Made by a program: the position numbers and the translations under genes
Part shown: positions 12,170 to 62,411 of the stretch, piece by piece
How the letters are laid out: every line of letters begins with the position of its first letter
Numbering within the stretch: the first letter of the stretch is position 1
DNA from: Christensenella sp. UBA3798
Lineage (GTDB): Bacteria > Bacillota > Clostridia > Christensenellales > CAG-1252
Direction of reading: 5' to 3'
DNA length: 62,411 nt
Assembly (NCBI GenBank): GCA_002368735.1
Contig: DFEQ01000029.1
Span: 1-62,411 of the forward strand
Notes under the pieces: model-generated
The model's database searches: none
What the model was told of the DNA's origin: nothing
The model's input: the letters and a program-made list of their open reading frames with translations, nothing else

Positions 12170-12177
12170 GAGGACTT

Positions 12178-20144: not shown

Positions 20145-20173
20145 TATGAAATCGATTGGAGGCACATACGCTT

Positions 20174-31993: not shown

Positions 31994-32005
31994 GGAGCAA
32001 CAAAA

Positions 32006-32233: not shown

Positions 32234-32256
32234 CCTTCTTTCAGAAGGTCTTTTTA
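32232..32256 (+). terminator. intrinsic terminator after the ACP gene
   Basis: GACCTTCT-ttc-AGAAGGTC followed by TTTTT. Confidence 0.65.
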
Positions 32257-32265
32257 TAAGACGGG

Positions 32266-32294
32266 TTGAATTGTCCCATCGAAAGTGATATAAT
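32266..32294 (+). promoter_or_regulatory. promoter candidate for the esterase gene
   Basis: TTGAAT (32266-32271), a 17-nt spacer, then TATAAT (32289-32294). Confidence 0.45.
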
Positions 32295-32320
32295 GGAATC
32301 GTTACGAAGCGGAGGGAAAT

Positions 32321-33316: not shown

Positions 33317-33340
33317 CGTCTGATATATTCCAAGATGACG

Positions 33341-33370
33341 GGACGCGCCATGCGGTGCGTCCTTTTTTAT
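33341..33370 (+). terminator. intrinsic terminator isolating the esterase gene from the giant gene
   Basis: GGACGCGCC-atgc-GGTGCGTCC (9 bp including one G.U pair) followed by TTTTTT. Confidence 0.75.
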
Positions 33371-33770
33371 TCAATAGTCCCTACAAGCCCCTAGGCTCGC
33401 ATTCTTGCCGATGCAATGCAAAAAGTCCCTTAATAGCCCCTAGGAGTCCCTTAAAATGTCGTGTCGATCGGGTCATCGGCTCGTGAATGTATTGTCCGTT
33501 GATTTATTTTGTTGATCTACGCATCCTTTCGTGTCCGCTTATCGCGCCTGTTTGCGTTTGCTCGCCCGCCGATAAGCCCTCCCACGCTTGCACTTTTTCA
33601 AGCTTTTCTCTTTTTTCTTATTTTGTCGTAGCAGTGCGTATTTCGTCCCTTTTATTTGCTTTTTGTCGGGCAATTTACGATCGGAAAAGGCTTTTGATTA
33701 AGATTTCGATAAGGGCTCGTTAAGTTTTATTAATAGGAATTATTTTATAAATAAGATTACGTACTTACCA

Positions 33771-33800
33771 TTGAACTTTCCATTCATAGAATGGTACTAT
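33771..33800 (+). promoter_or_regulatory. promoter candidate for the giant gene
   Basis: TTGAAC (33771-33776), an 18-nt spacer ending in TGg, then TACTAT (33795-33800). This leaves a 5' UTR of roughly 65 nt before the RBS. Confidence 0.3.
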
Positions 33801-33871
33801 GTTTGCAGGTGTTTACGCGTACGCATAATGCGAAGCGTCAAACGGCAAACAAACAGTTACAGGAGGCTGTT

Positions 33872-33949
33872 ATGAGCAAACGGAAAATTTCGATTTTGAT
33901 ACTCGTCTTACTGATGGTGGCGCTGGTCGCGTTCACATTCGTTTCTTGT
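33872..33949 (+). other. lipoprotein signal peptide of the giant protein (MSKRKISILILVLLMVALVAFTFVSC)
   Basis: Basic n-region, hydrophobic core and lipobox-like FVSC, with the Cys codon at 33947-33949. Confidence 0.75.
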
Positions 33950-36900
33950 AGTAAGAAAACGATGGAATTGACAGTCACCGACGTCAAAGCGGTCTACGAC
34001 GGCGCTGCGCACGCTGTCGAGGTGTCGTGCGATACGGGCGACACTTCGGGCTGGACTATCTCGTATGAGAACGAGAATGGTGAAGTCACCTCCAGCCCCG
34101 TCAACGCCGGTAAGTATACGGCAACGGTCACCTTTGAGAAGAAAGGGTACAACACCGCCGTCGCTACCGCCACGTTGACCATCTCGCAGGCTACCCCGGA
34201 GGTGTACAAGTGGCCTACCTTGGTTTATAACTATCCCGAGGCGGCACCCACCGAGCGTCGCGAGGTATACGGCACGGCGATGTCCGACAGCTGGCTCTCT
34301 GTCACCACTCTTGACGAGAGCAATTACGAAGAGTATGCAAGCGTTCCCGGCACTTTCTCCTGGTCTGCCGGCGAAAAGCTCTCTGCCAAGACTGCCGCCT
34401 ACGACGTCACCTTTACTCCTGCCGGTTCGTCGAAGGATAGCAACAGTTATTACAACAATTATAAGAAAAAGTATCTCAAAAACACCGATTTCGGTAAGCT
34501 TCCCATCACCGTCCTGCCCGTTACTCCTGTACTTTACGGCGCCGACCAAGCGGAGCAAGAGAGGAATAAGCCTACCACCACCTATACCGGCGGCACCTTA
34601 GTCAGCGGTACCAAGCTTAGCTTGGTCAAGCTCAATAAGGCGAGGTCCACTTCGACCGAAACGAGGCACGGCTACGTCGTTCCCGGCACCAACGAAGAGA
34701 TAAGCGGCACCTACCGTTGGGGACATTTGGATGCGGAGGGCAACCCCGTCTATCACGACGAGCTCACCGTCCACGTGGCAAATAACGATATCCCGTACAC
34801 CTATCTTTTCGTTCCCACCAACCTCGTCGATCATAAGATCGCCGTAGGCGAACTCAAGGTCATCGCCTCCAAGGCAAACGTCGTCGTCGATACTTCCGTC
34901 ACGATCTCGGCGACCGACATTATGTTCGGGCAGAAGCTCTCGCACAGCACCTTTACCGTTAACGGCAACTACATAAGCAACTCCTATTACGGCACCTACG
35001 CCTGGGTCGAGCCCGATTATATCCCGACCAAGGTGGGCGAGACTATCGTATACCTGTCCTATTCTCCCTTGACACAGTCGGGTGAAGAAGACCCCGAGCT
35101 CAATGGTACGCGCGATATCCCCGTCAAGGTCAACGTCACTAAAGCTAAGCTTTATTTCGACGGCTTGCAGGTCTTCTCGGCGGGCGAGACCAAGCTCGAG
35201 AGCAGTATTTTCTACGGTGATAAGCTGGAGACCTATGCCCTCAGGTGGGATAGCGTCTATTATATAGACGAAGGCTTTGACCAAAACGGTAGGCTCTACC
35301 CCGACCAAAAGCACTATCTCAATACGGACGTTAACGACCCCGAAGTATTGGGCTTGACGTGGAAAGATACCGTAAGCGAGGTCAATAATACCTATTTCGT
35401 GCAGGTGAAGACCACCGACGATCTCACGGGCTATAATATCCCGAGCGACCTTGAAGACCGCTATCTCAATACCTATTACTTCCCCCTCGAAGTCACCCTT
35501 TCCGAGCGTGCGGAAGAGTTCCTCTTCGACAGTGTTGCCGACCTCATCTTCACGGTCAAGAAGATCGATGTCAATACCAAGACCAAGAACAGCGAGAAGG
35601 AGTTCGGCGCTCTCGAGACCGTAGCCTTCGGCACGCCTCTTTCGGCAGTTAAGCTGCCCACCGATGACAAGTTCACGATGTGGGCTACGTCGGGTCAGGT
35701 TCGCGGCACCTTCACGTGGGTCGACGATACCATCTATCCCGGTATGCCCGAGCAGAGCGATTCGGATAATATTTACGTAGACGAACAAATCCTCGATTAT
35801 TACACTTATTCGGAGAATAATCAGACGGTCAGGAAGCCCATCTACGCCACCTATTATAAGGCGAAGTTCACTCCCGACCCCGAGCATTTTTCAAATTATC
35901 AGGACGTCTTCGTCTTCTTCCGCGTGGACGTTTCGAGCGCGACGAGCCTCACCTTCAGCAATACACCCGGCGTGGGCGAAGCCACTGCGGGTGATTCCCT
36001 GAGCGACGTCGAACTCAACACCGATGGCATCAACACCTACGTCGTCGGTTATAAGAAGGTCACGGTCACCTCGCAGGATGCGTTGACCGACCCCAATAAT
36101 AAGCACTATATCCGCAATACGGACGGTAAGTTCGTCTATACGAACGAGTATCAGTCCGGCGTGAGTTATTACGTCGCCGAGAATATCCTTATCGACGGCG
36201 TCATCAACTGGGATAACCCGCAGCAGACCGTCGAGATGAAGACTTCCACCTATTATATCGGCTTCACTCCCGACAAGAAGTTCGCTTCGGTCGTTTCCTA
36301 CTACAAGTATCTCGTGCACCTGATCGTGTACACCAATTCCTCTTGCTTCATCTTGGGCGAGAAGAACGAGAGCGCAAAGACCGCCTACATCATGGGCGTG
36401 AAGGAAGGCATCTCCGCCGACGACATCGAGAACGTCGTCATTCAAGATACCATCAAAGATGAGAACAAAGTCCCCTATACCATTATAGGTATCGCGGGTT
36501 CCACCGACGATAGCCTCGGCGCGTTCCAGGGCAAGGTCGCCATCAAGACCCTCTCGCTCCCCGATACCATCAAGTTCATCGGCAAAGAGGCATTTGCGGG
36601 CTGTACCTCCCTCACCGAAGCGCGTCTCTCCGTCGGGTTAAAGACCATCGGCGACCGTGCGTTCGAGGGGTGTACTGCCTTGACCACGCTCGATATCCCC
36701 GAGTCTTGTCAGTATACCTCTATCGGCGCGTTTGCCTTCAAAGATTGCGTAAAACTCGCCTCTGTCTCCGTGCCTTCCGAGACCGCTACGATCGGTATCG
36801 GCGCCTTCCTCAACTGCAAGGACCTCGTATCCGTCACCATCGACGAGGCGAACGACTATTATCGCCTGTCCGAAAACGGCCACGCCATCTTACGCTTGGA

Positions 36901-39900
36901 CAATGAGGGTAATTTCTCCATATTACACACTTACTTTGCTTCCAACGCAGCTTTGAGCTACGTCATCGAGCCCGAGATAACCACCATCGGCGCCTATGCC
37001 TTCGCGGGCAATACGACGCTTGTAGGTAAGGTCATCGCAAAGAACGTTACTCACATCGAGGAATATGCCTTTGCGGGAGCCACTTCCTTGACCTACGCCT
37101 ACTTCATGGTGGACGACGTCGTCATCGACGAGCAAGAGACCACCTTTGAAGGCAACGAACACGTCATCGTCTACGGACCCGAGGGCAGCGTGGTTATCAA
37201 GGCGTTCTGTGCGGCCGCACACCTCGAGTTCAAGGAGCAGACCTTCGTGCGCTACCTCGGACTTATCCAAGCCGACCCGAACTACGTTTCGACCTTCAAG
37301 ACCACCGTGGACGCCAGCGGCAACGCCACCATCGTGGGCTTCTCCAAGGGCGAATATCTGCCGGCGAACGACCTCGACGCAGAGGGCTTTGCCGCGCGCA
37401 TTTACGCTGATTATTCCGAGCTCGACTTCTATTACGTTGACACCGTAAAAAAGGCGTACGTCTTCGCGGACAGCTACGACGAGGACTACGTAGCCGCGGG
37501 CGGCAAGTATTACTATTACGCCCAGTTCGATGAGAACACCGGCAATCCGAGCACCGAGCTCATCATCCCCGCCTACATCTCGCAGGAGGCTATCTCGCCC
37601 CTCTATGAGCTCCCGCCCGAGTGCGACGGTTACGCCCGCGTCACCAAGGTCATGGGCTTTGGTAGTACCAATATCACCAAACTCGTTATCCCCGATACCG
37701 TCACCGAGATAAGCGACCGCGCCTTTGAGCGTTGCACCTCCTTGACCGAGGTCACCCTCTCTGCGGCTCTGACCACCATCGGTAAGAACGCATTCTACGG
37801 CTGTACCTCCTTGCGTAGCGTACTGCTTCCCGAATCCTTGACCACCATCGGCGACAACGCCTTCAACAATTGCACCTCTTTGAAGTCGGCAAGCTTTGAA
37901 GGGGACGTGGCGAACCTTGGCGCGGATATCTTCTATTATACCCCCGTCGAGATCTACGGACCCGAAGAGGGCAACGTAAAGACCTACTGCCAGAGTCACG
38001 GCTATACTTATAACGCCGGCACCCGCACCTCTTGCTTCTACTATGAGAAGAACGAGGCGGGCACGCAGGTCAAGATCACCGGCTTGAAGTCGCACAACTG
38101 CAAGGACGGCCACAGCAACATCATTATCCCCGCGACCATCGAAGGTCTCCCCGTCACCGAGATAGCGGACGAAGCCTTCAAGAACAACTTGCAGCTCGTC
38201 TCTATCACCATTCCCGCCTCGGTCAAGAAGATAGGCTCGGGCGTGTTCAGCGGATGCAGCAACCTGATGAGCGCCGATTCGGGGACAAACCCCTATTACC
38301 ACTTCGAGAGCTTAGTGGTAGGCACCAGGCTGGAGTATATCGTCATGTATTCCGGTTCGGGCGACACCTTGATAAGCTACTTCGCCGCATCCAAAGCGGA
38401 GATATTTGAGGTGCCCGAAACCGTCACAAAGATAGCGTCCGGCAGCTTTGCGGGCGCGACCAACCTCACCGATATCGTCATCGGCGCGGGTGTTTCGTCC
38501 ATCGCCGCCGACGCATTCAACGGTTGCACGAACCTCTCGAATATCGACATCTCTTCCAACAACCGTTACTTCAGCACCGACAGCAAAGCTATCTACAATA
38601 AGAACGGCACCAAACTCATCACTTACCTGAGTTACAACAGCAGCGACCTCTATGAGATAAAGGCCGGCGTGGAGACCATCGGCGAGCGCGCCTTCTATGA
38701 GAATACCGTCCTCCGCAGAGTGGTGATACCCACCTCGGTATCCGTCATCGAAGCGAGTGCCTTCTACGGCGCCAATAGGCTTATCAGCGTGACGGTGAAG
38801 GGGAACCTCACCTCCATTGGCAACAACGCTTTTGCGGGTGATGTCTCGCTGCTCTCCTTCTACGTGGAGGAGGACGTGGCGGCGCTCGGCAAGGACGTCT
38901 TTGCGGGTGATACTTCCATGATCATTTACAGCCCGAACGGCGAGAACCTCGGACTGTACGCCTACAGGAACCACTTGCGCTTCAATAACTGCTATTCGGC
39001 GGAAAGCTTCGCCACCAACGGCGATTCCGAGAAGGTGACCATCACGGGTCTTAAGCTGAACTACGTTGAGTCCGACCCCGAAAAGAAACTTTACATCTCC
39101 ATTCCTCCTTATATAGACGGTGCCCGCGTGTGCGCGATAGGTCAGGAAGCGTTCTCCGAGTATGGCATCGGCGAGATCGCCCGCTTGAACAGCATCTATA
39201 TCCCCGATACCGTGGAGACTATCGGTAGCAAGGCGTTCTATATGTGCTCCGACCTCACCAGCGTCTATTTCGGCGGCAATATGCGCTATGAAGATATCGC
39301 TACGGACGCCTTTGACGGCATCGTCAAGAAGAACCTCAACTTCTACTTTGCCACCGAGAGCAGTCTCTATTTGGAATTCATGAATAACGCCGACGACGAG
39401 TATAAGGATAACGTCAGGTTGGTGGATCTGCACAACTGTCTGGAATACGCCCCCGGCAACGAGGCTTGGACGGTCACGGGTCAGTCTCAGCACATTTGCA
39501 CCGAGAGCCATAACTTCGTGTCTGTCCCCGCCAAGTATACCGGCGACGTCGTGGAGAATGAAGAGCGCGTCACGAAGACCTATTTCGTCACCGTCGTCAA
39601 GGACGCCGCGTTCATCGGCAATAACAAGATATATACCGTGGAGTTTGAGAGCAGCAGCGAGGAGGGCGCGTCGCTTGCGATAGGCAAGTCCGCCTTTAAG
39701 GATGCGCGCGGCTTGACCTCGGTCACCTTTGCTTCGCATACTACCTCCATCGGTAGCGACGCATTCCGTAACGACGTCAAACTCGAGAGCGTCGTTCTTC
39801 CCGAGAAATTGACCTATATCGGCAGTAACGCCTTTGCGGGTTGCACGAGCCTGACCTCGGTATTCTTTACCTCCGACGTTGCGGGTCTCAGCGGTTACGT

Positions 39901-54900: not shown

Positions 54901-57900
54901 TGAGCTCGTTACTGCTAAGCTGTACGAGGGCAAGGTGGATAAGCTCGAAGAGATCAGGGCGGATGCCTTCAGTGGTTGCTCCGCGTTGAAGTACGTCTAT
55001 CTCGGCAAGGCTCTGACCTTCATCGACGGCAACCCCTTCGGCAGCTGCAGCATCGACCAAAAGGCAGGCTCGGTCTTCGCCATCGACGCGGATAACCCCT
55101 ACTACACCAGCAAGGTGGACGGCAAGAATACAAACATGATACTCAGCAAGGATGCCGTCACGTTGTACGCTTCCTACGCTACGGGCGACGTTGTGGTGCC
55201 CGACGGCGTGGTCAGGATCCTTTCGGGCGCATTCAAGGGCGCGGGCATCACGTCCATCACCATCCCGACCTCGGTGCGTTCCATCGCCGTGGATGCCATC
55301 GTGCGCTGCTCCGATCTCACCAGACTCACCATCCTCTCCGAGAATTTGACGATGGGCGAATATGTAAGGGGTAAGGGCGGCAACGGCATCGTCACGAAGG
55401 ACGAATGCGCCGCTTCCTTCACCGTCTTCGGCGTAGAGGGCACTATCGTGGAGTCCTACGCCAAGTGGTTCGACGACGATAAGGAGGCGATGCCCTTCCG
55501 CGCAGTCATCTCCACGGGCGCATTGACCATTGCGGGCGGTGTGGTCTTGAAGGCGGATATCTCCAAGCTCGGCAAGGTGGTCATCATCCCGACCGAATAC
55601 TACGAAGGTATCGAGATGAAGAACATCACCGAGATAGCCGACAGCGCATTCTACGGCGCAAAGCAGGTGGAAGAGATCTACCTCTCCGCATACCACCTCA
55701 CAAAGATAGGTAAAGCCGCCTTCGCGGGTATGACCTCGCTCAAAAAGGTCGTATTCTTCGACGACGGAGATTACGCACGCTTCAGAGAGCTCGTTATCGA
55801 CGAAAACGCATTTGCTTACAGCTACTCCTTGAACGAGGTGCACTTTGAGACCTATACGAGGAATATGTCTATCGCCGCAACGGCGTTCCGTTCTTCGGGC
55901 AGCAATCTCACGATCTACGCCCCCAACCTCATAAATGAGCTCAACGACCTTGCCGCGTTGCAGGGCGTGGTAGCTACCTGTGAGGTCTCCTATTACGGTA
56001 TGCTCAGCATCGAGGCGTTGAATGCTAACGAGGCTAAACTTGTCGGCATCCGCGAGCGCTACGTCGAGGACGGCAGAATAAAGAATAGAGCCACCTATGA
56101 AGATTACGCGGGTAACGGCGCCTACTTCTACTACGAAGGCAGCACGCTCACCTCTGTCATCGATTCGGATACCGGCTTGCTCAAAGACTACGACAGCTAC
56201 GATGCAAATGAGAAATTCTATCAGCAGGTCGGGCTGGGTGGCAATCTCTATATCCCCGAGTATATCGCGGGTATGCAGATGGTCGCGGTGGATATCGCGG
56301 ATCCGGATACCTTGTCGGGTATCAAGAAACTCTTCTTGCCCGATAGCATCCGTTCTATCAGTGCGGGTAGCTTCTCCAATACGATGCTCACCGAGGTCCT
56401 GCTGCCCGACGGCATCACGGATATCGGCGAGGGCGCCTTTAAGGCAAAGTCTAACGCCCTCCACATCTACTACGACGGCGACGCCCTCGACGCAAACGTC
56501 TTCGCTTCGAGCGCTTATACCGTCTACGTCCATACCGGTGCGACTATCGACCATCCGAGGACGGGTGTCGAAAAGGTGGCAGTCACGCCCGCTTCCTACT
56601 TTACCTACACAGTCTTCAACGGCAGGGAAGTCGAGATAACGGGCTTGAAGGGCGCGGGTCTCTCCGAGAAGAACGTGGTCATCCCCACCTACCTCAAGGG
56701 CAGGAAGGTCACCTCGATCGGCGACGGTGCCTTCGCGCATGACGCTAACCTCAAGACCTTGACCATCTCCAAGTACATCACCGAGATAGGCAACAGCGTC
56801 TTTGTGGGTACCTTTGAGAATATCGAGTACGTTACCTCTCCCTTCATCCTCTTTGAAGAAGGCTCCAATTCCTTCGTTATCGAGCACGTAGCGAACCGCG
56901 ATCTCTTGCTCCTGCGTGAGAAGGGCGATGATTATACCACCATCTACGCCGTATTCTCCGTCTTGAAGAGCGAGGACGATGAGGAGAGCGTGGCGCTGAA
57001 CTTCTCGGTGCCCACCTCCGTGACAGAGATCAGGGAAGGTGCCTTTGCGGGCGCGTATAGCCTCAGAAAAGTCTATGGCAATACCTACTATAGGGCGGAA
57101 GCGGAGAATACCGCTCTCGTAAAACTGGTCGAATCGGAATACGTCGAGAACTCTTCGAGCAACGTCTTGCTTGCGGTGCTCCGCACTTGCGAGAGCTTGG
57201 AGATCGCCACAGGCAACGTCTATCGCGTTGGTGCGTACGCCTTCTACGGCGCTACGATGGAGAAGATCATCGGCATCCCGAGCACGGTGACCGAGCTTGG
57301 CGAAGGTGCCTTTGAGAATTGCTCCGCTCTGACGAGCGTCGAGCTGCCCGAGGGTATATCCTATCTCCCCGCGCGCGTGTTCTACGGCTGCTCCCGGTTG
57401 ACGGGCATCAGTATTCCCGACGGCGTCAATTCCATCGGCGAGTTCGCCTTTGGCAAGTCGGGTCTCATCAGCATCGACCTTACCGCGCTCGACAATCTGT
57501 CCAAGATAGGCGAGAGCGCCTTTGCTTACTGCGAAGCGCTCCGCACGGTCAGTTTCGTCGGTACCAACGTCGTATCCATCGGCAAGGACGCCTTCCGCGG
57601 CTGCTCGGATCTGATGGATATCGACCTCTTCACCACCGTGAATGCGGAGACGGGAGCAAAGACCAGTAACCTCGAGGAGATCGGCGAAGGCGCATTTGCG
57701 GGCACCGCGATCACCTCCATCGTACTTCCCGAAAACGTGACTGCCATCTCCGACAAGATGTTTGAGGGCGCGACCTTCCTGCGTGAGATAAGCGCGCTCG
57801 GCGCGGTGGAGACGATAGGCGATTATGCCTTCCACGGTGCGTCGTCGCTCCTCGGCATCCCCGACTCCATTCTGCCTACCTTGCGCACGATAGGCGAAGG

Positions 57901-60900
57901 TGCGTTCATGAACAGCGGTCTCAGGTCCATCACCTTGCCGCAGAGCGTGACCGACATCGCTCCCTATACCTTTATGGGATGTACCTATCTGACGAGCGTC
58001 ACCTTGACCTCTTCGCTTAGGACGATCGGTGAGAGCGCCTTTGAAGGCTGCGACGGCAGAATCGCGCTTGACGATTACTCCTACGTGGAAGTCAGGGGCG
58101 GCAGAGTGTACCTTGTGGATGCGGCGGACGAGGAGAAGACTCGCCTCGTTGAAACCACTACCATCTCGGGCAATACCGCTTACACCGTGGTCAACGGTCG
58201 CAAGATCTACAACGCGGGCGATAAAATCGTCGTGGACGGTCGCTTCGCAGGCACCGTATACGAGGATGCCAGGACGCACGAAGCATACCGCATCGCCTAT
58301 CTGGACGAGAGCGGCCTCAGAGTGGAGCTCTCCAAGGTGAGCGGTGAATATGTCCTCCGCATTTATCCCGCGGACGGCGAGGGTGACTCCTCCGATCCCA
58401 AGTTGACCGACGTGACCAACTTCGAGGATAAGCTTAAGGACTGCAAGATCAACCTCAGCTTCGGTGTCACCAAGATAAACCTCGGCATCCGCGTCACCGA
58501 GATAGGTAATAGGGCGTTCGCCAAGACGGCGATAGAGTCCATCAGCCTGTCCGACAGCGTGACCAAGGTGGGTGACGAAGCCTTTGCCTACAACGAGAAC
58601 TTGCAGAACGTGCTTATCGGCGCGAAACTGAGGACCATCGGCGCAGGCGTCTTCCGCGGCACTCCCAACCTTGCCGGCGTGGACGTCAATAAGAAGAATA
58701 TCTACTTCAAGTCGGACGACGACAAGGTGCTCTATATGGCAAGGTTCGACAAGGTCACGGAGGAAGGCGCAAAGGCTGAGTCCGGCGTGATTTACTACGA
58801 ATTGAACGGCGACTCCTATTCCACCAAGACGGGCTTGACCGTCGGCGAATCCTCCGTCACAGGTCTCTACGAGAAGAATTGGGTCTTGAAACTCTATCCT
58901 GCGGGTCGCGTACCTGCGGGTGACCTCTCCTTCGTCGTGCCTTCCGACGTCGTCGGCATCGATGCGGGCGCATTCTACGATTGCAAGCTTGAGCGCGTCA
59001 TCATACAAGACAGCGTCAAGAATATCGCCAAGGGCGCCTTTGAGGATGCAGGTTACTTACAGACCGTATTCTTCGACGCCGATCTGACCATCGCCGCAGA
59101 CGTCTTTGACGGAACGAGCGTGGAGCTTGACGTGCCGATGTACGGTACCCTCGCGGCGAATTGCGCGGGCAACTACTTCACGGGCGACGTCACCTATAAG
59201 ACCCATACGCCCAAGAGCTGCTTTACCTACGAGGTCAACGGCTCTACGGTGAAGATCACGGGCTTCAAGGGCGGCTGCTCTCACGACCACGCCAACCTCA
59301 TCATACCCGACTATATCGACGGTTGCAGGGTCACTAAGATAGGTGCTCTTGCCTTTGCTCACTGCGAGATAGAGTCGCTCACCCTCCCGCTCCTCCTGGA
59401 CGAGATCGGCGACGGTGCGTTCTATGATAACGATATCACCGCCATTACCTTGAAGGGCGAGGAAACGGAGGACGACTACGAGGCATACAGCGAGAACGAT
59501 ACCTTCAAGGTCGCTAAGGTCTACGGTGATAAGAATATGACCGAGGATAGCGCTCTCTACACCCTGCTTTACAACAAGGTGGACGGCGTACTCATCCTCT
59601 ATCTCGACGGCAAAGTCGATATTGACGGCGAAGAGACGGCTTTGAAGCTTCCCGACGGTATTACCGCCATCGGCTTCGGCGCATTCTACGGCACCGAGAA
59701 GATAACGGCGGTGGATCTCACGGGCGTCACCACTATCGGCACCGCGGCGTTTATGGATTCCAAGGTCAACGCCGTCAGCGGTCTTGACAAAGTATCTACC
59801 GTCGGCGACAGCGCCTTTGAGAATACCGAGATCACGACGTTTGCCTTCGGCTCGGGTGTGTCGAGTATCGGCGCGGCTGCCTTTGCGGGTGTGGACGTTA
59901 CCTCCATCACCTTTGGCGGTGAGGGCGTGTATGAGAACCGTTTCTACCATTACGAGAACGATTTGTTGTTCGCCTATGTCGATAGGACGGAGATGAAGAT
60001 GTCATTGCACACCGTCTTCAAGGCGTATCTTGCAAACGTCGGCGCTAATTATCTCACCGTTCCCGATAGCTTCGAGACGGATGATAAGGGTGAGACGGTT
60101 ACGTACCTGCTCTCCGACATCGGCGCGTATGCCTTTAAGAGCCTTGACTTCGGCATGACCTACGATTACAAGCTCAATAAGGACAAGGTCTTTGACGCGA
60201 GCGCTACCTACTATAAGCTGGATAACGGCGTTTACTCCGTCGTCGAGCTCACTCAGGAGACCTACCTTGCGAAGAAGTATTACAACTACGTCGGCACCAG
60301 AAACGGCGTTATACTCATCCCGTCGGCAAAGGATCTGACCGTCTCCGAGGGCGCTTTCGTCAACGACACCATCAGAGAGGTGCACTTCGAGAGCAGGGTG
60401 GACGCCATCGAGGGCGGTACGTATTTCGACAAGGATACCGTCGTCTACTATCCGCAAGGCTCGGCGATAGCCACGGCGCTCACCGCTTCCGGTCATACCG
60501 AAGCGCTTGCCTTCACGCCCAAATCCTACCTCGTCTACGACGATACGGAGTCTGAGACGGAGATAAGGATAACGGGAGTCAGCGGCAGGGTGCCCGACCT
60601 TGTTATCCCCGCATTCGTGGATGGCAAGCTGGTCACGGCGGTGGGCACTGACAGCACGAATTCCGACTTTGGAACAAGCGGAGTCACTCGCCTCGTCATC
60701 ACCGACCGCGTCATCGAGCTCGGTAAGTACGCCTTCAAGAACTGCACCACCTTGACGGAGGCTACCATCGGCGCGGGCGTCACCGAGATACCCGAGGGCT
60801 TCTTCCTCAGCTGTTCTCTCTTGAAGACGGTGACCTTGTCCGAATCCGTCACGACCATCGGCGCCGAAGCGTTCAAGAGCACCATCTTGACCAAGATACC

Positions 60901-62411
60901 GGTCGCTGTGGATGAGTTTGGTGAGGCTAACGTCACTGAGATAGGCGCTTCCGCCTTTGAGAACGTGAGGACCATCACGGAGATCAAGTTCTGGAGTCTG
61001 CCGCTTGACGAGAATAAGCAAGAGCAGAAGCTCATCGTGGGCGACGCCGCCTTCAAGAACTGCAACAACCCCGCCATCGTTATGATAGACGTTCCCTCGT
61101 GGGTCCAGCTGGGCGCCGGCGTCTTCTACAGCAAGGCGAACAATCTCTCCTACCTCCTTTTTGAAGGGGATCAGTTCGCTTTGGAAGAAGATGATGAATA
61201 CGAATCGCCGGAGGAGAAGGCAGAGGCGTTCGCCAATGCGGCTAAGGCAAATATGGAGCTTTGCTTCGTGAACCTCAATAGCCCGAATTTCAGCAAGGTC
61301 AGCGTGCCCATGAGCGCAACGAGGCTCAGAGCATACTTCACTATTGTTGCGGGCGCAGAGAGCTCCAAATGGGTCAGTTTCACGCCCGACGAGTGCTTCG
61401 AATGGGGCAGTGATAATGAAACGGGCGAAGTAGTCTTGATGGGCTTGAAGACAAATGCAAGCAATTGGGAGAGCGGTCTCAAACCGTACGTCACAGACGC
61501 CGCTTACGGCAACGGCTCCCTCATCATCCCCGAGTATCATAACGGCTTGCCTGTCAGGATCATCGGTACGAGCAACTTGCTCACCGGCAAGTACAATGTC
61601 GATTACGTGACGCATATCGTCATTCCGGACAACGTGACGAAGATACAGCAGAATGCTTTCCGCGTGTATCGTTACGACGGTATGGATCACGATTCCGGCT
61701 TTACTGCGGGAGCCGTAGAGGTGGAGTTCGGAGAGAATACCTTGATATCCTCTATCGGCGACTACGCCTTTAATGGTGTCAAGATCGGCAAGCTCTCCAT
61801 CTCCGGCAAGAATCAACTCACCGTCGGCGAGGAGGCGTTCAGCGGAACGGCGCTTACCGAGTTGAAGATAACCAAGGTGAATCGCGTCGGAAAGAATGCC
61901 TTCTATGGCTTGACTGCGCTCACCAAGGTCGATCTCACCTTCGCGGGTGATAACGCCGTGATCGGCGAGTCTGCTTTCGCGCTCGAGAGCAACGTGTCGG
62001 GTTCCGCCACTCTCGTGGTCAGAGGCGCCCTCTCCGAAATAAGGAAGAACGCCTTCAAGAATAACGATTTGGGCATTTGGAGATTTGAGGCGAAGGCGGA
62101 GACGATAGGAGGATCTGCCTTTGAGAATTCCAAGGTCACGGTGGTGCCCTCCAACGCGGTCACCATCGGCGACTACGCCTATAGGAATGCGACCATCCTC
62201 GACAAGTACGGTAAGGGTGACGTCGTCTTGAAAGACGTTGACTCGGTCGGTAAGGCGGCGTTTAGCGGCAGTACCATCACGAGCTTCACCTTTGGTAGCA
62301 AGATGAAGACCTTCTATGCGGACGACTCCGCTGATAACGGCTCGCTCCATAATACCGTGAAGCTTGCGACTATCGCTTACGGCGGCGGCGACGTTTCGAA
62401 TCCGTACTTCG
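33872..62411 (+). CDS. giant BspA-type leucine-rich-repeat surface lipoprotein (at least 9,513 codons; 3' end beyond the window)
   Basis: The ATG at 33872 follows AGGAGG (33861-33866) by 5 nt. I read the frame (positions congruent to 2 mod 3) codon by codon to 62411 and found no stop. It is not in the ORF track because there is no stop in the window. No track ORF on the plus strand lies in this frame. The translation shows a lipoprotein signal peptide, Ig-like repeats, then well over 100 units of the BspA/LRR_5 pattern (IP.SVT.IG..AF..C..L..V). Confidence 0.92.
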   Translation, partial: MSKRKISILILVLLMVALVAFTFVSCSKKTMELTVTDVKAVYDGAAHAVEVSCDTGDTSGWTISYENENGEVTSSPVNAGKYTATVTFEKKGYNTAVATATLTISQATPEVYKWPTLVYNYPEAAPTERREVYGTAMSDSWLSVTTLDESNYEEYASVPGTFSWSAGEKLSAKTAAYDVTFTPAGSSKDSNSYYNNYKKKYLKNTDFGKLPITVLPVTPVLYGADQAEQERNKPTTTYTGGTLVSGTKLSLVKLNKARSTSTETRHGYVVPGTNEEISGTYRWGHLDAEGNPVYHDELTVHVANNDIPYTYLFVPTNLVDHKIAVGELKVIASKANVVVDTSVTISATDIMFGQKLSHSTFTVNGNYISNSYYGTYAWVEPDYIPTKVGETIVYLSYSPLTQSGEEDPELNGTRDIPVKVNVTKAKLYFDGLQVFSAGETKLESSIFYGDKLETYALRWDSVYYIDEGFDQNGRLYPDQKHYLNTDVNDPEVLGLTWKDTVSEVNNTYFVQVKTTDDLTGYNIPSDLEDRYLNTYYFPLEVTLSERAEEFLFDSVADLIFTVKKIDVNTKTKNSEKEFGALETVAFGTPLSAVKLPTDDKFTMWATSGQVRGTFTWVDDTIYPGMPEQSDSDNIYVDEQILDYYTYSENNQTVRKPIYATYYKAKFTPDPEHFSNYQDVFVFFRVDVSSATSLTFSNTPGVGEATAGDSLSDVELNTDGINTYVVGYKKVTVTSQDALTDPNNKHYIRNTDGKFVYTNEYQSGVSYYVAENILIDGVINWDNPQQTVEMKTSTYYIGFTPDKKFASVVSYYKYLVHLIVYTNSSCFILGEKNESAKTAYIMGVKEGISADDIENVVIQDTIKDENKVPYTIIGIAGSTDDSLGAFQGKVAIKTLSLPDTIKFIGKEAFAGCTSLTEARLSVGLKTIGDRAFEGCTALTTLDIPESCQYTSIGAFAFKDCVKLASVSVPSETATIGIGAFLNCKDLVSVTIDEANDYYRLSENGHAILRLDNEGNFSILHTYFASNAALSYVIEPEITTIGAYAFAGNTTLVGKVIAKNVTHIEEYAFAGATSLTYAYFMVDDVVIDEQETTFEGNEHVIVYGPEGSVVIKAFCAAAHLEFKEQTFVRYLGLIQADPNYVSTFKTTVDASGNATIVGFSKGEYLPANDLDAEGFAARIYADYSELDFYYVDTVKKAYVFADSYDEDYVAAGGKYYYYAQFDENTGNPSTELIIPAYISQEAISPLYELPPECDGYARVTKVMGFGSTNITKLVIPDTVTEISDRAFERCTSLTEVTLSAALTTIGKNAFYGCTSLRSVLLPESLTTIGDNAFNNCTSLKSASFEGDVANLGADIFYYTPVEIYGPEEGNVKTYCQSHGYTYNAGTRTSCFYYEKNEAGTQVKITGLKSHNCKDGHSNIIIPATIEGLPVTEIADEAFKNNLQLVSITIPASVKKIGSGVFSGCSNLMSADSGTNPYYHFESLVVGTRLEYIVMYSGSGDTLISYFAASKAEIFEVPETVTKIASGSFAGATNLTDIVIGAGVSSIAADAFNGCTNLSNIDISSNNRYFSTDSKAIYNKNGTKLITYLSYNSSDLYEIKAGVETIGERAFYENTVLRRVVIPTSVSVIEASAFYGANRLISVTVKGNLTSIGNNAFAGDVSLLSFYVEEDVAALGKDVFAGDTSMIIYSPNGENLGLYAYRNHLRFNNCYSAESFATNGDSEKVTITGLKLNYVESDPEKKLYISIPPYIDGARVCAIGQEAFSEYGIGEIARLNSIYIPDTVETIGSKAFYMCSDLTSVYFGGNMRYEDIATDAFDGIVKKNLNFYFATESSLYLEFMNNADDEYKDNVRLVDLHNCLEYAPGNEAWTVTGQSQHICTESHNFVSVPAKYTGDVVENEERVTKTYFVTVVKDAAFIGNNKIYTVEFESSSEEGASLAIGKSAFKDARGLTSVTFASHTTSIGSDAFRNDVKLESVVLPEKLTYIGSNAFAGCTSLTSVFFTSDVAGLSGYVFGNAEERNPDLVIYGPGGGELETYCNNRGYAFKAWTVSYYLNEWKDIDASTCELVKCREGQDDLESVVIPYSHNNKKVVKIGNKAFSDGTANGSDKYANIKEIIIGEGVEEIGEMAFAYTGITSITIPASVKKIGSRAFFGCTDLTEIYFKGDILTDGMQYLVSTGKKLNVFGPANSNLERYFAKYPLITYNAYTMPSCFEVEVSEDNENEVYISGLKDHYCASGHTNIDIPDYINGKKVVGIKWHAFVGHTEIYGLSIPSTLTDIETGAFYGCTGLKNVKVSSDNPAYKYLDGALLSMNGKKMYICLSSEVEYTVPEGVTEILDGAFDGAINMEVLILNEQVSKIAPDAFKGCDNLANIAVPEQNPNFVFTGGALFNKDQTLLYIYLYTSRYKSYDVPDTVTEVADAAFRKAGALEQIRFYSDVIVGDKIFGDEDDIHAAVYAPAGSYNLEKAAIYAGLEFYNDITPCFSYEVSDLGVTITGFSCLDHAHDEINIPLYIENKPVIAIGEDAFAENGDKGGYIEVAVTADTFVRGKYYTQLINYQELVVAEEYSEELYYADGTGPIFVDEDNFYNDTYYVMKVYDLIYVPAESYNEFNMYYLPFRGVRIGDNVTRIESGAFRGSNLRSVVIGSSVESIAADAFEGANSLTEVYFKSDIDLSGAFTGLNNADLTVYFTEDCTHLYDYFDAMFTAYDPEEETGEPGSVVLLSSLEDNTNCFIYADGDPTRIVGLKDHVCLTAHDDVVIPAHVTAIGDNAFENNKEIIRLTFSAGMTSLGSGALSGCTRLTEIVIDEANPYFAFKDGVLYGKEGDELKTLIFYTAKNTATSYTVADGITRIATGAFYGNEYLRTITIGKDVTLVDDNAFVACTALQNIYVHEANEKYVSTAKYGDGAVGVLYEVKSRKADDTVDKAALVAYPAGARATYVTVGGSFDVNEVKSGAFNSAKYLTLVYFETYVGYMGEEGIFDNFTHFDSLKVCLPIGAGANSFASYLTTLGIETLRYTSKEALTFERNTSGYTVTGVNDAAFIKSNTSMDISASPLNAEAINGYFLFGGKKLIKVPLYYNGLPVNEIADYAFAVKEADASLSVASTIEKVSIAGSVSVIGVGAFANMDALTEIELAANPISGATSSYVFENGVLYTSLNKDVLHTYLSSNSYEVVNFAGPILIEVEEEATTPDNSEENAENEESDEDENEEEGGSDEEPAPQSNVRYEESNVTTIEGNAITFRGVRKILAGAFNGNDAVKEISLNAGIAEIGDGAFSLTTALVDIIVSSDNENYRFEKAITARNEEGAPVLTGGLFNKDLSLLHTYLYTNNYDSVILTEVGIGSGLTHIGGRAFEGTKVSRVRLPDSILVVGDYAFKDMTNLKYLYFESSPAEDKLGIDIMGNKAEFENTDRKILVYGPGGEDRASNVNSYSSVQKYFVDNYAEESEATTHVRYIAWTEDEAFNYLLVKTSDNRGVATILSMTADAAFDYGYGYKEIVVAPYLKKDGVRYDITTIGAEAFKNRVEIKSLTLLYSVTEIAEGFVKGAYNIEDIFINDNDAYRVLQNDETYASGIVYTRDMTTLMAYMPMNAPRYINTNYTAFPVPSSVKRIAAGAFAGAKHLIKISFGENVTEIGAGAFADCEYLNDIVISSANQSYRFDGYTLYNYDMTLLHTYLATGGGNNGVGNYVVPQGVTEIAPYAFEGNDRLEYIRIPEYLTEGDTVTSATIVGYCAFANMNSLSEVFFENLVEIGTDAKELAGSEVTDEDRVNNETYVAENAKMTAIKVTTTLYHYNDAESYVAVGDLSEDVFNATKAQLYYKVAGQYESAENTTFDANVVYYTRLDRREEVFVGKNSFKWGEDFTAAGLNVYALYEGNGSHLLTEDEYTVDASGYNKYAAGTYRIIVTSKANSAYSTYYDVTVEPIKDIFGELAGGKTVTVYAPQSSYLNHVAEMHSAVVYVPYTPKQCLDLTLTEDGYVINGFNTEEDPCVLDATDYVNENYVTKGDHSTLTVPSYINNTPVYKIADGAFYASDLTSVKLLQGVEVIGKRAFEKSLQLKRVELSSTVSEIGAGAFLYLNALDSFTLVNNGYFFLKDGALYGEGGTLLHTMFNAFASEVFETEEAVERIEDRAFEGVSTIRYLTVPYTTTHVGEKAFKNMEDLEEIYFCTDMDTDVEHGYIASDALSGCMVGLQLFGPKGVYLESFANKSGVIYVAWNDASCFEYKFYTKSVEITGLVAAGHEGCSGGYHDDVVIPMYIGGVKVTSIGAGAFKDEDKLTSVVIPTSVTSIGERAFEACTSLAYVTIPYSVKTIGDNAFASCSSLDEVVFNTDAITLGKDVFISAKSTMILYSENKRGEVSKYATAYSIPFNTGTPYTCFLTSTIMNSSGTSTIRVDGLKKHKCKYEHKEVIIPNLIRGKVVQKIKSGAFAGLTNLEKLVISAYIDDVGTGTFNGCEKLTTVDISADNEYLAINNGLIYTADGKTLLAIVDSIAGNNVTLADSTEKVQSNALYGSAVVTLSLNNELTTIGSGAFGGANSLTAITVGEDNKKFSSEDGILYNKSKTALIAYPAGITSEYYIVKDGVIVIGAGAFGGAASLKSVVLPVSVSSISQNAFYGASNLIDIQVNGAISTVDKGAFEATAPTLVVTGVSDDNAQAVGALEIFCTENNVRFMAITPSTCFTYTTEGMPAGTAKVTGLQPHKCTHHVNVVVPMYIDGLRITAVGDRAFAHQQQLVSIVIPQTVTNVGVAAFAGCKNLTSVYLGDSVSYIASKAFTSTESLTEVFITSGDFKVSNDAFYNAGYNDLTVYLDRALTEVISVIEDDNGIRIASIEEIVCLRDHYSVVNGNEIKITGLSSHVCPSGHNALIIPETIDGKVVTAIADDAFLNNHTVVKIYLPATVKKIGESAFMGASKLYDIAFYYYDENGSFVESDHNDYFAMDGGALYSADFKTLYAYMTARSEVEMNVNRNARYVKSHAFYNAANLLSITFLEDIYDSSNIKSSALEGVNQNLIVYVPTDTSEVYEGLIDGADTMYQLKAISGHSVYNATDYFTYEYLDDEENTVKITGITGEYKTELGTSYADATLVIPQYINGRKVSTIADKAFVGLKFGAVVFPDGLTRIGEMAFANWTNLSNVVFPSSLQTLEKMAFSGCSNMYEAYFLGAATALGDSIFNNTMNVAFGAKRNFTAFGPTTTYMTEYFEEKGVEYNACTSVLCFNYEVLDNGMVEIHSIKDHVCNANHKVVHVPDKINGREVDSIDGNTMFKGLTTVETVTLPDNMTSIPAGLFKNCSSLVSVNMPSGLMSIGAGAFENCVSLDSITFSDNLSLIGEYAFKNCHGLTDIIIPSSVYNIHEGAFSGCSGITRIMLSRSVTSISAHLFDGCSSLETLYYRDANGMTKNGLSTGISSVGEYAFYGCSSLRGIFSGDYEVLSTIGEKAFAYSGIESFTIYSSITSLGEGAFAGCNDLTLEDGGNEIYSLEDGIIYQSETIKAVKETDSGEGDNTFSITGDQKDFFYSTADSGEYMLVSGEHPDYFGPATYTNYGKNDSTPKNSGWISYSYYSDNGSAAVLGHYTGSTTWSSDTDYSTTYFEGTNVEEHFEITNSSTVKWRDTGKTFYRQLGAGTYTVSVSFDWAHNEYRNDGSSYGGLGGSTKRAHDIYSYTFTFKINTVNKVWYYNLQPNEEGNDQDEEAANILQHAATNMPTDAVELKRSVLQPNSYFLGDPEDPHFAFDEKQGTVSVNLKKNSEFLNMKGHLIVFFEVSDGSENFITTARCYKLSSVVNNTFKQHVTIHTVSANLSGPLEIDCKDGLSVVIKDEETDYCVRGPEMPNGTENVTKIAYTSGYVKITTGATTLFANTTADAVSKGLITIVSLEGKFQVEYDLTAIKRLSGAGANATIRFYTNETYTDAVDDGYTYNLATPTANAGAYAAYISVTAEFNGTTIYGKKEGDLYRFNNNDLADAIATMDAAGAILAVRTISEFALEGCSSLDSLSIGKAVDSIGAGALINTQGIAEIGVHEQNEYFVLHKINANDPQYAYSGGGLYRKLTGVNEGKTELIAFLGSNTVTEFTLPDHCIMIGDYAFSHNTTIERVYLNKVTTLGKKAFYGCTSLKYMELPAGWSPSGGYKYGERVFEGAGLESVYFEGDFRYTAQIGDMLFGENYDVTIYTKYDDGILAGYCADYNGRSLRVYKMTALNDFAYQTVNGNEIEIMKYLGDDENVIVPDMIENKKVTAIGDAAFEGTNVVTVNLPAYITLIGDYAFSDAKSLKELYVNSDPSIKQNLFNNHSSALIVYGITASILDEYCESIGVAFNLGTTWGCFHYETGAVGGGAKITGLVDHVCNSSHKHIVIPSEIHGYTVTEIDENAFNARTKAEGERAMYRAIESVTIPSSVKVIGKGAFANNSSLKVMRFQNTTISSIGANYYDLSGNLCNTFGDNAALIVYAAEFESTEVRDFCTENAIEFHAVLNINNVTYEEINGSYAITHVSSTDKSIILPDMIGGKKVTEIAKFAMQSKDYASVKLGKYVTKIGEHAFDNCEKLKVIDLPEGLKTIGELAFNGCKSLTAIFIPSSVQTIGDKAFAECTGLKTLRFLGDVKNIGANLLYGVTMTYASVGSTGSVKTVPFLQIRSSATNLDTYFRNKLSVRATKVENMDDYRRWEECYEYMVDVDEYGEVCIDITGLKDHICVNGGHGDILIPGQIGGIKVRKVADKAFAGEKTIRSVTFELISNEGLSQIGKQAFSGCELLGKVNLGPVQLIGDGAFEYCKLLSTIISPFGSVSTIADNTSAGMAGVFAGCENLKSIEGLTNSNPLYASNGVIYFGAGNTRIARYVYDLSAEVLNLDKATSVDPKAFDSIDKAGVRIINIPETLTALSYAMIKDFKNLEEINVAGAFRLSNVPNATTSVPDPLYDMMFYVPIGKTVLGIADDHLTRINDPAHFNYVPVEKDGVIVGVEIKANDAFGASSMAGGTLVLPHYGYVDGVSYPVIGIAERGFAGKTAIISIDPLHVTYIGVEAFEGCTELVTAKLYEGKVDKLEEIRADAFSGCSALKYVYLGKALTFIDGNPFGSCSIDQKAGSVFAIDADNPYYTSKVDGKNTNMILSKDAVTLYASYATGDVVVPDGVVRILSGAFKGAGITSITIPTSVRSIAVDAIVRCSDLTRLTILSENLTMGEYVRGKGGNGIVTKDECAASFTVFGVEGTIVESYAKWFDDDKEAMPFRAVISTGALTIAGGVVLKADISKLGKVVIIPTEYYEGIEMKNITEIADSAFYGAKQVEEIYLSAYHLTKIGKAAFAGMTSLKKVVFFDDGDYARFRELVIDENAFAYSYSLNEVHFETYTRNMSIAATAFRSSGSNLTIYAPNLINELNDLAALQGVVATCEVSYYGMLSIEALNANEAKLVGIRERYVEDGRIKNRATYEDYAGNGAYFYYEGSTLTSVIDSDTGLLKDYDSYDANEKFYQQVGLGGNLYIPEYIAGMQMVAVDIADPDTLSGIKKLFLPDSIRSISAGSFSNTMLTEVLLPDGITDIGEGAFKAKSNALHIYYDGDALDANVFASSAYTVYVHTGATIDHPRTGVEKVAVTPASYFTYTVFNGREVEITGLKGAGLSEKNVVIPTYLKGRKVTSIGDGAFAHDANLKTLTISKYITEIGNSVFVGTFENIEYVTSPFILFEEGSNSFVIEHVANRDLLLLREKGDDYTTIYAVFSVLKSEDDEESVALNFSVPTSVTEIREGAFAGAYSLRKVYGNTYYRAEAENTALVKLVESEYVENSSSNVLLAVLRTCESLEIATGNVYRVGAYAFYGATMEKIIGIPSTVTELGEGAFENCSALTSVELPEGISYLPARVFYGCSRLTGISIPDGVNSIGEFAFGKSGLISIDLTALDNLSKIGESAFAYCEALRTVSFVGTNVVSIGKDAFRGCSDLMDIDLFTTVNAETGAKTSNLEEIGEGAFAGTAITSIVLPENVTAISDKMFEGATFLREISALGAVETIGDYAFHGASSLLGIPDSILPTLRTIGEGAFMNSGLRSITLPQSVTDIAPYTFMGCTYLTSVTLTSSLRTIGESAFEGCDGRIALDDYSYVEVRGGRVYLVDAADEEKTRLVETTTISGNTAYTVVNGRKIYNAGDKIVVDGRFAGTVYEDARTHEAYRIAYLDESGLRVELSKVSGEYVLRIYPADGEGDSSDPKLTDVTNFEDKLKDCKINLSFGVTKINLGIRVTEIGNRAFAKTAIESISLSDSVTKVGDEAFAYNENLQNVLIGAKLRTIGAGVFRGTPNLAGVDVNKKNIYFKSDDDKVLYMARFDKVTEEGAKAESGVIYYELNGDSYSTKTGLTVGESSVTGLYEKNWVLKLYPAGRVPAGDLSFVVPSDVVGIDAGAFYDCKLERVIIQDSVKNIAKGAFEDAGYLQTVFFDADLTIAADVFDGTSVELDVPMYGTLAANCAGNYFTGDVTYKTHTPKSCFTYEVNGSTVKITGFKGGCSHDHANLIIPDYIDGCRVTKIGALAFAHCEIESLTLPLLLDEIGDGAFYDNDITAITLKGEETEDDYEAYSENDTFKVAKVYGDKNMTEDSALYTLLYNKVDGVLILYLDGKVDIDGEETALKLPDGITAIGFGAFYGTEKITAVDLTGVTTIGTAAFMDSKVNAVSGLDKVSTVGDSAFENTEITTFAFGSGVSSIGAAAFAGVDVTSITFGGEGVYENRFYHYENDLLFAYVDRTEMKMSLHTVFKAYLANVGANYLTVPDSFETDDKGETVTYLLSDIGAYAFKSLDFGMTYDYKLNKDKVFDASATYYKLDNGVYSVVELTQETYLAKKYYNYVGTRNGVILIPSAKDLTVSEGAFVNDTIREVHFESRVDAIEGGTYFDKDTVVYYPQGSAIATALTASGHTEALAFTPKSYLVYDDTESETEIRITGVSGRVPDLVIPAFVDGKLVTAVGTDSTNSDFGTSGVTRLVITDRVIELGKYAFKNCTTLTEATIGAGVTEIPEGFFLSCSLLKTVTLSESVTTIGAEAFKSTILTKIPVAVDEFGEANVTEIGASAFENVRTITEIKFWSLPLDENKQEQKLIVGDAAFKNCNNPAIVMIDVPSWVQLGAGVFYSKANNLSYLLFEGDQFALEEDDEYESPEEKAEAFANAAKANMELCFVNLNSPNFSKVSVPMSATRLRAYFTIVAGAESSKWVSFTPDECFEWGSDNETGEVVLMGLKTNASNWESGLKPYVTDAAYGNGSLIIPEYHNGLPVRIIGTSNLLTGKYNVDYVTHIVIPDNVTKIQQNAFRVYRYDGMDHDSGFTAGAVEVEFGENTLISSIGDYAFNGVKIGKLSISGKNQLTVGEEAFSGTALTELKITKVNRVGKNAFYGLTALTKVDLTFAGDNAVIGESAFALESNVSGSATLVVRGALSEIRKNAFKNNDLGIWRFEAKAETIGGSAFENSKVTVVPSNAVTIGDYAYRNATILDKYGKGDVVLKDVDSVGKAAFSGSTITSFTFGSKMKTFYADDSADNGSLHNTVKLATIAYGGGDVSNPYF
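33950..36534 (+). other. N-terminal non-LRR region: degenerate Ig-like/MBG-like repeats
   Basis: A first module with VYDGAAH...NAGKYTATV...ATLTISQA. Then recurring G-T-[FY]-x-W ... F-T-P units near 34350, 34706, 34990 and 35704, plus VINW near 36200. Confidence 0.55.
36535..50329 (+). repeat. protein-level array of BspA-type LRR cassettes (first block)
   Basis: Repeating 22-26-aa LRR units are grouped into cassettes. Each cassette ends in a ..[IV]YGP.G....Y-like tail and restarts with ..CF.YE...ITG....IP..I.G..V..I...AF. Confidence 0.85.
43409..43524 (+). other. acidic low-complexity linker inside the giant ORF
   Basis: Translation reads EVEEEATTPDNSEENAENEESDEDENEEEGGSDEEPAPQ. Confidence 0.8.
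50330..51765 (+). other. roughly 480-aa non-LRR insert in the giant ORF (beta-rich/Ig-like?)
   Basis: The LRR periodicity is lost here. Sequence is rich in Y/T/S/N/G (GAGTYTVSVSFDW, NAGAYAAYISVTAEF). Visibly more A/T-ending codons, and the antisense shadow ORFs fragment in this stretch. Confidence 0.6.
51766..62411 (+). repeat. protein-level array of BspA-type LRR cassettes (second block, continues past the window)
   Basis: Same LRR unit and cassette-junction pattern as the first block. The last readable residues (...DNGSLHNTVKLATIAYGGGDVSNPYF) are mid-cassette. Confidence 0.85.

Follow-up and report, generated by a model that had tools for sequence, protein, structure and literature searches.

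The 62,411-nt stretch of DNA analysed here (the window) contains the first 9,513 codons of a giant gene. It is a real chromosomal gene, and a single one, from an uncultured member of the class Clostridia living in the rumen. The complete gene is ~29.6 kb long and encodes a protein of ~9,856 aa and ~1.07 MDa. We consider it probable that this single gene specifies a lipid-anchored leucine-rich repeat (LRR) surface protein that acts as a multivalent binding fibre, most probably an adhesive one.

Translation of positions 33872-62410 on the plus strand gives 9,513 codons without a stop, and there are zero N bases in the window. The closest in-frame stop 5' of the ATG is at 33752. Across the same stretch the remaining two plus-strand frames contain 330 and 389 stops, which excludes chance as the origin of the frame (probability ~e^-350, calculated from the stop frequencies of those other frames). 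The original prediction described an uninterrupted frame of at least 9,513 codons, preceded by an AGGAGG ribosome binding site and still unfinished at the window edge, and the sequence agrees on each point. The AGGAGG motif is located at 33861-33866, 5 nt before the ATG at 33872, and the copy of the gene in another strain is complete at 9,856 aa. The visible part had also been expected to exceed 1 MDa, and the mature protein encoded in the window has a computed mass of 1,032 kDa (pI 4.6). The gene is missing from standard ORF listings because the contig stops within it, consistent with the explanation given earlier that the ORF track omits frames that have no stop in the window.

Codon usage was scored with a table built from the 24 neighbouring genes. 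The sense frame of the giant gene has an LLR of 0.518 per codon, compared with 0.473 for the neighbours, and the score is above zero in all 300-codon windows. GC content at codon positions 1/2/3 is 0.50/0.40/0.75 in the giant gene and 0.54/0.37/0.75 in the neighbours. The long minus-strand ORFs opposite the gene (Table 1), which the original prediction had named as potential refuting genes, are shadows of codon bias and not genes. Their length, up to 1,839 aa, is what could recommend them as real genes, but codon bias accounts for it: all lie in the codon-aligned antisense frame, in which the 21 stops mirror rare TTA, CTA and TCA sense codons (13, 5 and 3, respectively). The antisense frame has an LLR of -0.008 versus +0.518 for the sense frame, and its GC pattern (0.75/0.40/0.50) is the mirror image of that of the real gene. 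The probability that these ORFs are real genes is thus next to nil.

Table 1. Positions in the window of the giant gene, its parts and the associated upstream and antisense features.
Feature	Position	Strand	Basis or remark
Intrinsic-terminator-like hairpin and T-run after the esterase gene	33340..33373	+	10-pair stem, 7 G-C pairs
Conserved control region (candidate promoter, leader and ribosome binding site)	33685..33871	+	Cross-species comparison
Giant gene, codons 1-9,513	33872..62411	+	Truncated by window end; 9,856 codons in same-species strain
Predicted lipoprotein signal peptide, aa 1-26	33872..33949	+	PROSITE PS51257-style rule
N-terminal non-LRR region, aa 27-893 (~865 aa), beta-rich	33950..36550	+	No family match
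LRR array, aa 894-9483 (~8,600 aa)	36551..62320	+	Pfam and self-trained HMM
Non-LRR insert 1, aa 3755-4015	45134..45916	+	Gap in LRR map
Non-LRR insert 2, aa 5461-5964 (largest)	50252..51763	+	Gap in LRR map
Non-LRR insert 3, aa 8684-8933	59921..60670	+	Gap in LRR map
Run of long antisense ORFs (largest 1,839 aa)	33908..62350	-	Shadow ORFs in the codon-aligned antisense frame

Copies of the gene were found in other assemblies. Over the 19,052 nt compared, Logan contig SRR5322904_129 (38,081 nt) matches the window at 100% identity, and it likewise carries the giant gene open up to the contig end. Scaffold_243 of ENA ERZ28653838 (SAMEA7016610; 163,395 nt) has 96.4% nucleotide identity to the window and therefore represents another strain of the same species. 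Across codons 1-3,153, its copy of the gene has 97.4% amino acid identity with no gaps and a pN/pS of 0.15, and the gene is complete at 9,856 aa, well within the contig (length from the gene-call table). The window and SRR5322904_129 both break inside the giant gene at sites no more than 66 nt apart (62411 and 62345). The last 200 nt of the window have no k-mer of 15 nt or longer in common with the rest of the window, and an exact search of genome contigs with the last 42 nt of the window gave 0 matches. Strain variation and a drop in coverage are possibilities for the break. By exact look-up, the 9,491-aa and 9,513-aa products are absent from the protein collection.

An ortholog from another species is encoded on GTDB contig CAMOTC010000015.1 (L003; 'uncultured Clostridia bacterium', from a bin of SRR873603). 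The 5' gene order is the same as in the window (PepF-like peptidase, a 253-aa ORF that is 256 aa in the window, DnaB, ACPS, ACP and esterase). Both SRR873603 and SRR873604 are metagenomes of sheep rumen (PMC4158751); these contain the ortholog and an identical copy of the neighbouring gene. Residues 1-4678 of the window protein align with residues 1-4680 of this ortholog in a single collinear alignment with no stops, at an identity of 64% (BLASTP) or 68% (MAFFT). Divergence between the two genes (dN 0.25, dS 1.16, dN/dS ~0.22), together with a pN/pS of 0.26-0.58 in every 400-codon window, indicates purifying selection along the length of the gene.

These comparisons bear directly on whether the long frame could be an artefact (mis-assembly, a collapsed repeat, a chimera, a pseudogene or several genes). 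Two assemblies do break at 62345 and 62411, and one low-quality ortholog contig splits the region into two gene calls. However, the longest exact DNA repeat inside the 28.5-kb gene is only 20 nt, independent assemblies are identical or collinear, the signature of purifying selection extends throughout, and the complete 9,856-aa call lies inside a 163-kb contig. DNA repeat families within the gene are no longer than 71 nt and are 60-86% identical, with a spacing in multiples of three, so that the gene offers no long repeats that might collapse in assembly, as had been feared. In-frame stops and frameshifts, which had been proposed as grounds for refutation, are absent from three independent sequences. 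We regard an artefact as extremely unlikely.

The protein begins with MSKRKISILILVLLMVALVAFTFVSC. The predicted lipoprotein signal peptide consists of an n-region (MSKRK), an uncharged hydrophobic core ending in VALVAFTFVSC, and a lipobox (T-F-V-S-C) with Cys26. The canonical lipoprotein signal of the original prediction is exact in sequence and conforms to the PS51257-type rule (K/R within the first 7 residues, an uncharged hydrophobic stretch, the lipobox [LIVMFWSTAG]2-[LIVMFYSTAGCQ]-[AGS]-C, and Cys at 15-35). Residues 1-26 form the sole hydrophobic 19-mer region in the 9,513 aa. The strain copies (L074 and L076) have exactly this signal peptide, and the lipobox FTFVSC is identical in the CAMOTC010000015.1 ortholog, whose signal peptide differs at two h-region residues. 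Neither the 9,513 aa nor the complete C-termini of two further orthologs (P0001 and P0271) contain an LPxT[GAN] motif, and a hydrophobic segment at the C-terminal end is likewise absent from the window protein and from these two orthologs. The protein thus lacks the features of sortase-anchored (LPXTG) surface proteins. A C-terminal anchor, which had been sought at the true end of the gene, did not materialize in the orthologs, where the complete C-termini have neither an LPXTG motif nor a membrane anchor.

Based on this signal sequence, the giant protein would be exported by Sec, receive a diacylglycerol modification by Lgt and be cleaved by LspA at Cys26. Once modified and cleaved at Cys26, the protein would be held by its N-terminus at the outer face of the cytoplasmic membrane (on the assumption, based on its class, that the organism has a single membrane). 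The ~865-aa beta-rich stalk would then span the wall, and the acidic chain of LRR solenoids, with at least 58 modules that differ from one another, would be displayed on the surface as a multivalent binding fibre.

The putative stalk contains recurring 'GTFxW...Y.v.FTP...NY' motifs. Searches of this region against Pfam, NCBIfam and PDB sequences gave no match, and its database relatives are two weak matches to proteins with MBG_2/YDG/Big_3_5 domains. In a single-sequence AF2 model the first domain is all-beta (pLDDT 60-82) and the model as a whole is poor (pLDDT 39). With low confidence, the region could be a stalk of MBG/Ig-like beta-sandwich domains.

The remainder of the protein is dominated by the LRR array, in which a self-trained HMM of 125 aa delimits 44 blocks with at least 58 significant segments of BspA-type LRR_5. 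Counts obtained with an HMM of the 23-aa unit or with a 'cassette head' regex were incomplete. Pfam LRR_5 (PF13306; gathering score 27.7 bits) matches the first 4,800 aa with E = 1.8e-293 (956 bits, 24 stretches) and the remaining 4,713 aa with E = 0 (1,076 bits, 26 stretches), in line with the BspA-type LRR content that had been read from the sequence. Strict I-G-x-x-A-F cores occur 127 times, versus 4.1 +/- 2.2 in shuffles. The repeat unit has a period of 22-23 aa (the commonest spacings are 23 and 22, and 53 spacings fall within 20-26 aa) and a self-derived consensus of AFAGCTSLTSVTIPSSVTTIG. The protein therefore has the (I/V)-x-I-G-x-x-A-F-x-x-C-x-x-L core in a ~22-23-aa unit by which the family is recognized. 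An AF2 model of the last 600 residues of the window protein (aa 8914-9513; 52 homologs) reached a pLDDT of 75.6 and adopts the solenoid fold of the LRR_5 family. Foldseek matched this model to 4gt6, 4fs7, 6mlx, 4cp6 and 4h09 at probability 1.00, with a TM of 0.63 normalised to TpLRR, and a PDB sequence search gave the same LRR_5 structures (E = 2e-42 to 4e-9).

Other domain types are scarce. The Pfam scan of the giant protein found no Big_2 or other Ig family above cut-off and no SecA, and the three non-LRR inserts in the array have no match in the family databases (Pfam/NCBIfam). Two NCBIfam models, adhesin_HupY/LrrG (NF047961) and glide_Gli349 (NF045861), score 120 bits each, far below their respective cut-offs of 1,250 and 1,750, and these scores stem solely from local LRR-type similarity. 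Within the largest insert the codon-usage LLR dips to 0.28-0.39, compared with ~0.55 elsewhere, and the frame is still open. The insert could have been acquired later or represent a different type of domain.

Conservation of the array differs between paralogous and orthologous comparisons. Paralogous LRR blocks are mutually 25-37% identical (45% in one 93-aa pair). Identity to the CAMOTC010000015.1 ortholog is 73% in LRR blocks, 65% in inter-block linkers and 55% in the N-terminal region, which is the least conserved part. Positions of the LRR unit that vary among paralogs, where the commonest residue accounts for 14-30%, are 50-80% identical between orthologs. This module-specific conservation indicates that the array is old, that its modules are individually constrained and that their order is fixed. 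A recent repeat expansion does not fit the divergent paralogs and the ortholog-conserved unit-specific residues.

LRR_5 domains act as binding modules in the few cases that have been studied (BspA, LrrA and PcpA), and most members of the family are uncharacterised. By analogy, the giant protein most probably serves to attach the rumen bacterium to plant particles, other microbes or material derived from the host. The strongest alternative is a role as surface coat or spacer, i.e., a thick, acidic, protease-resistant brush against phages, protozoan grazing and enzymes, in which the solenoids are rigid blocks. Such a role would suit a very long, acidic protein with a monotonous fold and no catalytic or known ligand-binding domain besides LRR in the Pfam and NCBIfam searches, and similar LRR_5 proteins of several thousand residues occur in many bacteria. 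A spacer, however, needs neither the retention of non-consensus unit residues between species nor a preserved module order, and the LRR blocks are more conserved than the linkers between them. The fact that modules resemble their positional counterparts (73%) far more than one another makes individually constrained binding or structural surfaces likelier than a recently amplified spacer. Module-specific conservation hence argues against the coat, which we consider unlikely while still giving it some weight.

The end of the gene can be followed in orthologous fragments. P0001 (on ENA scaffold L006) and P0271 (GCA_016648615.1) match the last 325-525 residues of the window protein at 49% and 56% identity and run for 320 and 306 aa, respectively, beyond its final residue before a stop codon. 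These extensions agree with the 9,856 aa of the strain copy, and the window therefore lacks only ~343 residues (~3.5%) of the protein. The C-terminus of the orthologs consists of LRR_5 followed by a tail without an assigned family. Nucleotides 1-77 of the L006 scaffold are out of the giant-gene frame, with an in-frame stop at position 21, and are probably a contig-end assembly artefact. Metagenome contigs scanned with the C-terminal alignment yielded no ortholog, only generic LRR proteins at 22-42% identity.

The stop of the giant gene is followed, 13-20 nt further on, by the start of a T2SSF (PilC/GspF-like) gene in two orthologous fragments, hinting at a neighbouring type IV pilus or T2SS-like cluster there. 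The T2SSF gene is at 2785-3831 of L006 and is also present on the GCA_016648615.1 contig; in one fragment it is followed by 302-aa and 91-aa ORFs. The giant protein could accordingly be imagined as a cargo, tip or partner of this machinery, not an autonomous lipoprotein. What suggests this is the adjacency seen in the two orthologous fragments. Against it, a conserved candidate promoter region of its own precedes the giant gene, the encoded signal is of the standard Sec/lipoprotein kind, and the protein has no pilin-like N-terminus. We judge a pilus partner to be very improbable. A further possibility, for which the term 'library on a string' seems apt, elaborates on the binding fibre. In this scheme ~fifty ancient, divergent modules in fixed positions would each have a different ligand, maybe in concert with the T2SSF/pilus-like system. 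Although we find this scheme doubtful and would not expect it to hold, it would mean that one lipid-anchored megadalton molecule provides a broad, hard-wired binding repertoire, with plant polymers, partner microbes, protozoa and host glycans as candidate ligands.

Upstream of the giant gene, the sequence suggests dedicated control. The terminator-like hairpin marks the end of the esterase gene and is set between the esterase and the giant gene; its stem is followed by TTTTTTATT, and it is kept in the strain and in the CAMOTC010000015.1 ortholog. The ~190 nt directly 5' of the ATG are almost invariant among the window, the strain copies L074/L076 and the ortholog L003 (11350-11536 in L074 and 5510-5696 in L003). 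Synonymous sites in the coding region of the giant gene are saturated between species, unlike this stretch, and its near-invariance therefore points to strong regulatory constraint. It contains a candidate -35 element (TTGAAC, 33771-33776), separated by 18 nt from an extended -10 element (TGgTACTAT, ending at 33800), which would give a 5' leader of ~70 nt. From these elements we infer a promoter role for the region. Just 3' of the esterase terminator, at 33376-33395 and 33424-33454, there are three copies of an AGTCCCT(A/T)..CCCTAGG-like motif that are also kept in the other-species ortholog locus and may represent either a binding site or what is left of a small element. The Rfam scan of the whole window gave no match.

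The genes 5' of the giant gene in the window comprise chromosomal housekeeping genes (LeuRS, DnaB, SpoU methylase and PepF) and uronate/pectin-type sugar-utilisation genes. Directly 5' of the giant gene (31520-33316) are genes for a holo-ACP synthase (157 aa), a 75-aa acyl carrier protein and a BD-FAE/Abhydrolase_3 esterase, and this trio is also kept at the other-species ortholog locus. Further upstream, at 5544-20144, genes encoding a PfkB kinase, a GH88 unsaturated glucuronyl hydrolase, a UxaC glucuronate isomerase and an MFS_2 transporter are interleaved with those for two large calcineurin-like metallophosphoesterases; a third such phosphoesterase is encoded at 20156-21520. ORFs of 368 aa and 722 aa in the 5544-20144 cluster have no Pfam match.

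Residues 1-1200 of the giant protein were searched against 1.84 billion cluster representatives, giving 276,542 matches, 46,319 of them at E <= 1e-30. The best 150 of the 276,542 matches are LRR_5 proteins with lengths of 950-7,983 aa and a median of 3,712 aa. All show 12-54 matched stretches except for a 950-aa ortholog fragment (P0129) with a single stretch. Two expectations of the original prediction have to be given up in view of this search. That BspA-like proteins are normally one cassette long is not borne out by the median length and the many stretches per protein among the best 150 matches. Nor is a lipid-anchored form with many cassettes a novelty, as 36 of these 150 proteins pass a loose lipobox test (for instance P0123 with 5,945 aa and P0145 with 5,054 aa). 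The ten largest of the 150 are all unnamed or 'hypothetical' metagenome proteins.

The closest parallels to the giant protein are these large LRR_5 proteins from uncultured bacteria. Proteins such as P0130 (7,983 aa), P0137 (7,622 aa), P0123 and P0145 likewise have tens of LRR_5 segments, and many have an N-terminal lipoprotein signal like that of the giant protein. They are, however, merely 31-43% identical to it in the LRR part. Among the matches listed, the N-terminal 865-aa region is shared by P0129 alone and so appears to be specific to orthologs, and the giant protein is longer than any of them (its own cluster is not among these matches). Since many similar proteins of several thousand residues lie unnamed in public assemblies, no new type of system needs to be invoked.

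Even larger proteins, of 10,000-30,000 aa, have been described from Clostridia of the gut; leucine-rich repeats are listed among the domains they contain, and adhesion has been proposed as their role (West-Roberts et al. 2023, 10.1101/2023.11.21.568195). These come from mammalian gut metagenomes and also contain RCC1, Listeria-Bacteroides repeat, YG-repeat and dockerin domains, and the full-length giant genes (>30,000 aa) encode numerous transmembrane regions and, in most cases, a SecA DEAD-like helicase domain (10.1101/2023.11.21.568195). The giant protein has in common with them the class Clostridia, a gut or rumen habitat, a highly repetitive sequence and a proposed role in cell adhesion. 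In contrast to those giant genes, it has 9,856 aa (<10,000), one hydrophobic segment, no SecA and essentially LRR_5 alone, and lacking both the transmembrane regions and SecA, it falls outside that group.

BspA of Tannerella forsythia and LrrA of Treponema denticola have the same LRR type (Pfam LRR_5) as the giant protein. Both are exposed on the surface, where they bind host matrix proteins as well as partner bacteria. They have ~1,100 aa or less and one LRR region, and BspA also has Big_2 Ig-like domains and a Bacteroidota-type C-terminal sorting domain. The giant protein differs in having at least 58 LRR segments, a predicted N-terminal lipid anchor and no Big_2 match, and thus does not share the strict BspA-like architecture (one LRR region, Big_2 and a C-terminal sorting domain). 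The best matches to its modules among solved structures include 4GT6 (a cell surface protein of Faecalibacterium prausnitzii), 4FS7 and 4FDW (Bacteroides ovatus), 4H09 (Eubacterium ventriosum), 6MLX (Treponema pallidum TpLRR) and 4CP6 (pneumococcal PcpA). These solved LRR_5 proteins are single modules of 150-450 aa, most without a known ligand. Ebh of Staphylococcus aureus and other megadalton adhesins are repetitive cell-surface proteins of ~1 MDa that are proposed to form fibres. The likeness of Ebh to the giant protein is one of size class only, and the repeat types are unrelated: Ebh is built from FIVAR/GA modules and anchored via a C-terminal membrane segment, unlike the giant protein with its N-terminal lipobox and LRR_5 repeats.

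For the biology of such proteins, the case shows that very large LRR_5 lipoproteins are kept module by module by purifying selection, not built via recent amplification, and it documents an intact ~29.6-kb bacterial gene with strain-level and species-level comparisons. It could also be a good model for what the thousands of uncharacterised BspA-type proteins of gut and rumen Firmicutes bind. Judged by sequence similarity, the giant protein is a very large further example of the common, uncharacterised LRR_5 proteins of several thousand residues; what is particular to it is its size among the matches listed, its ortholog-only N-terminal region and the clean comparative evidence.
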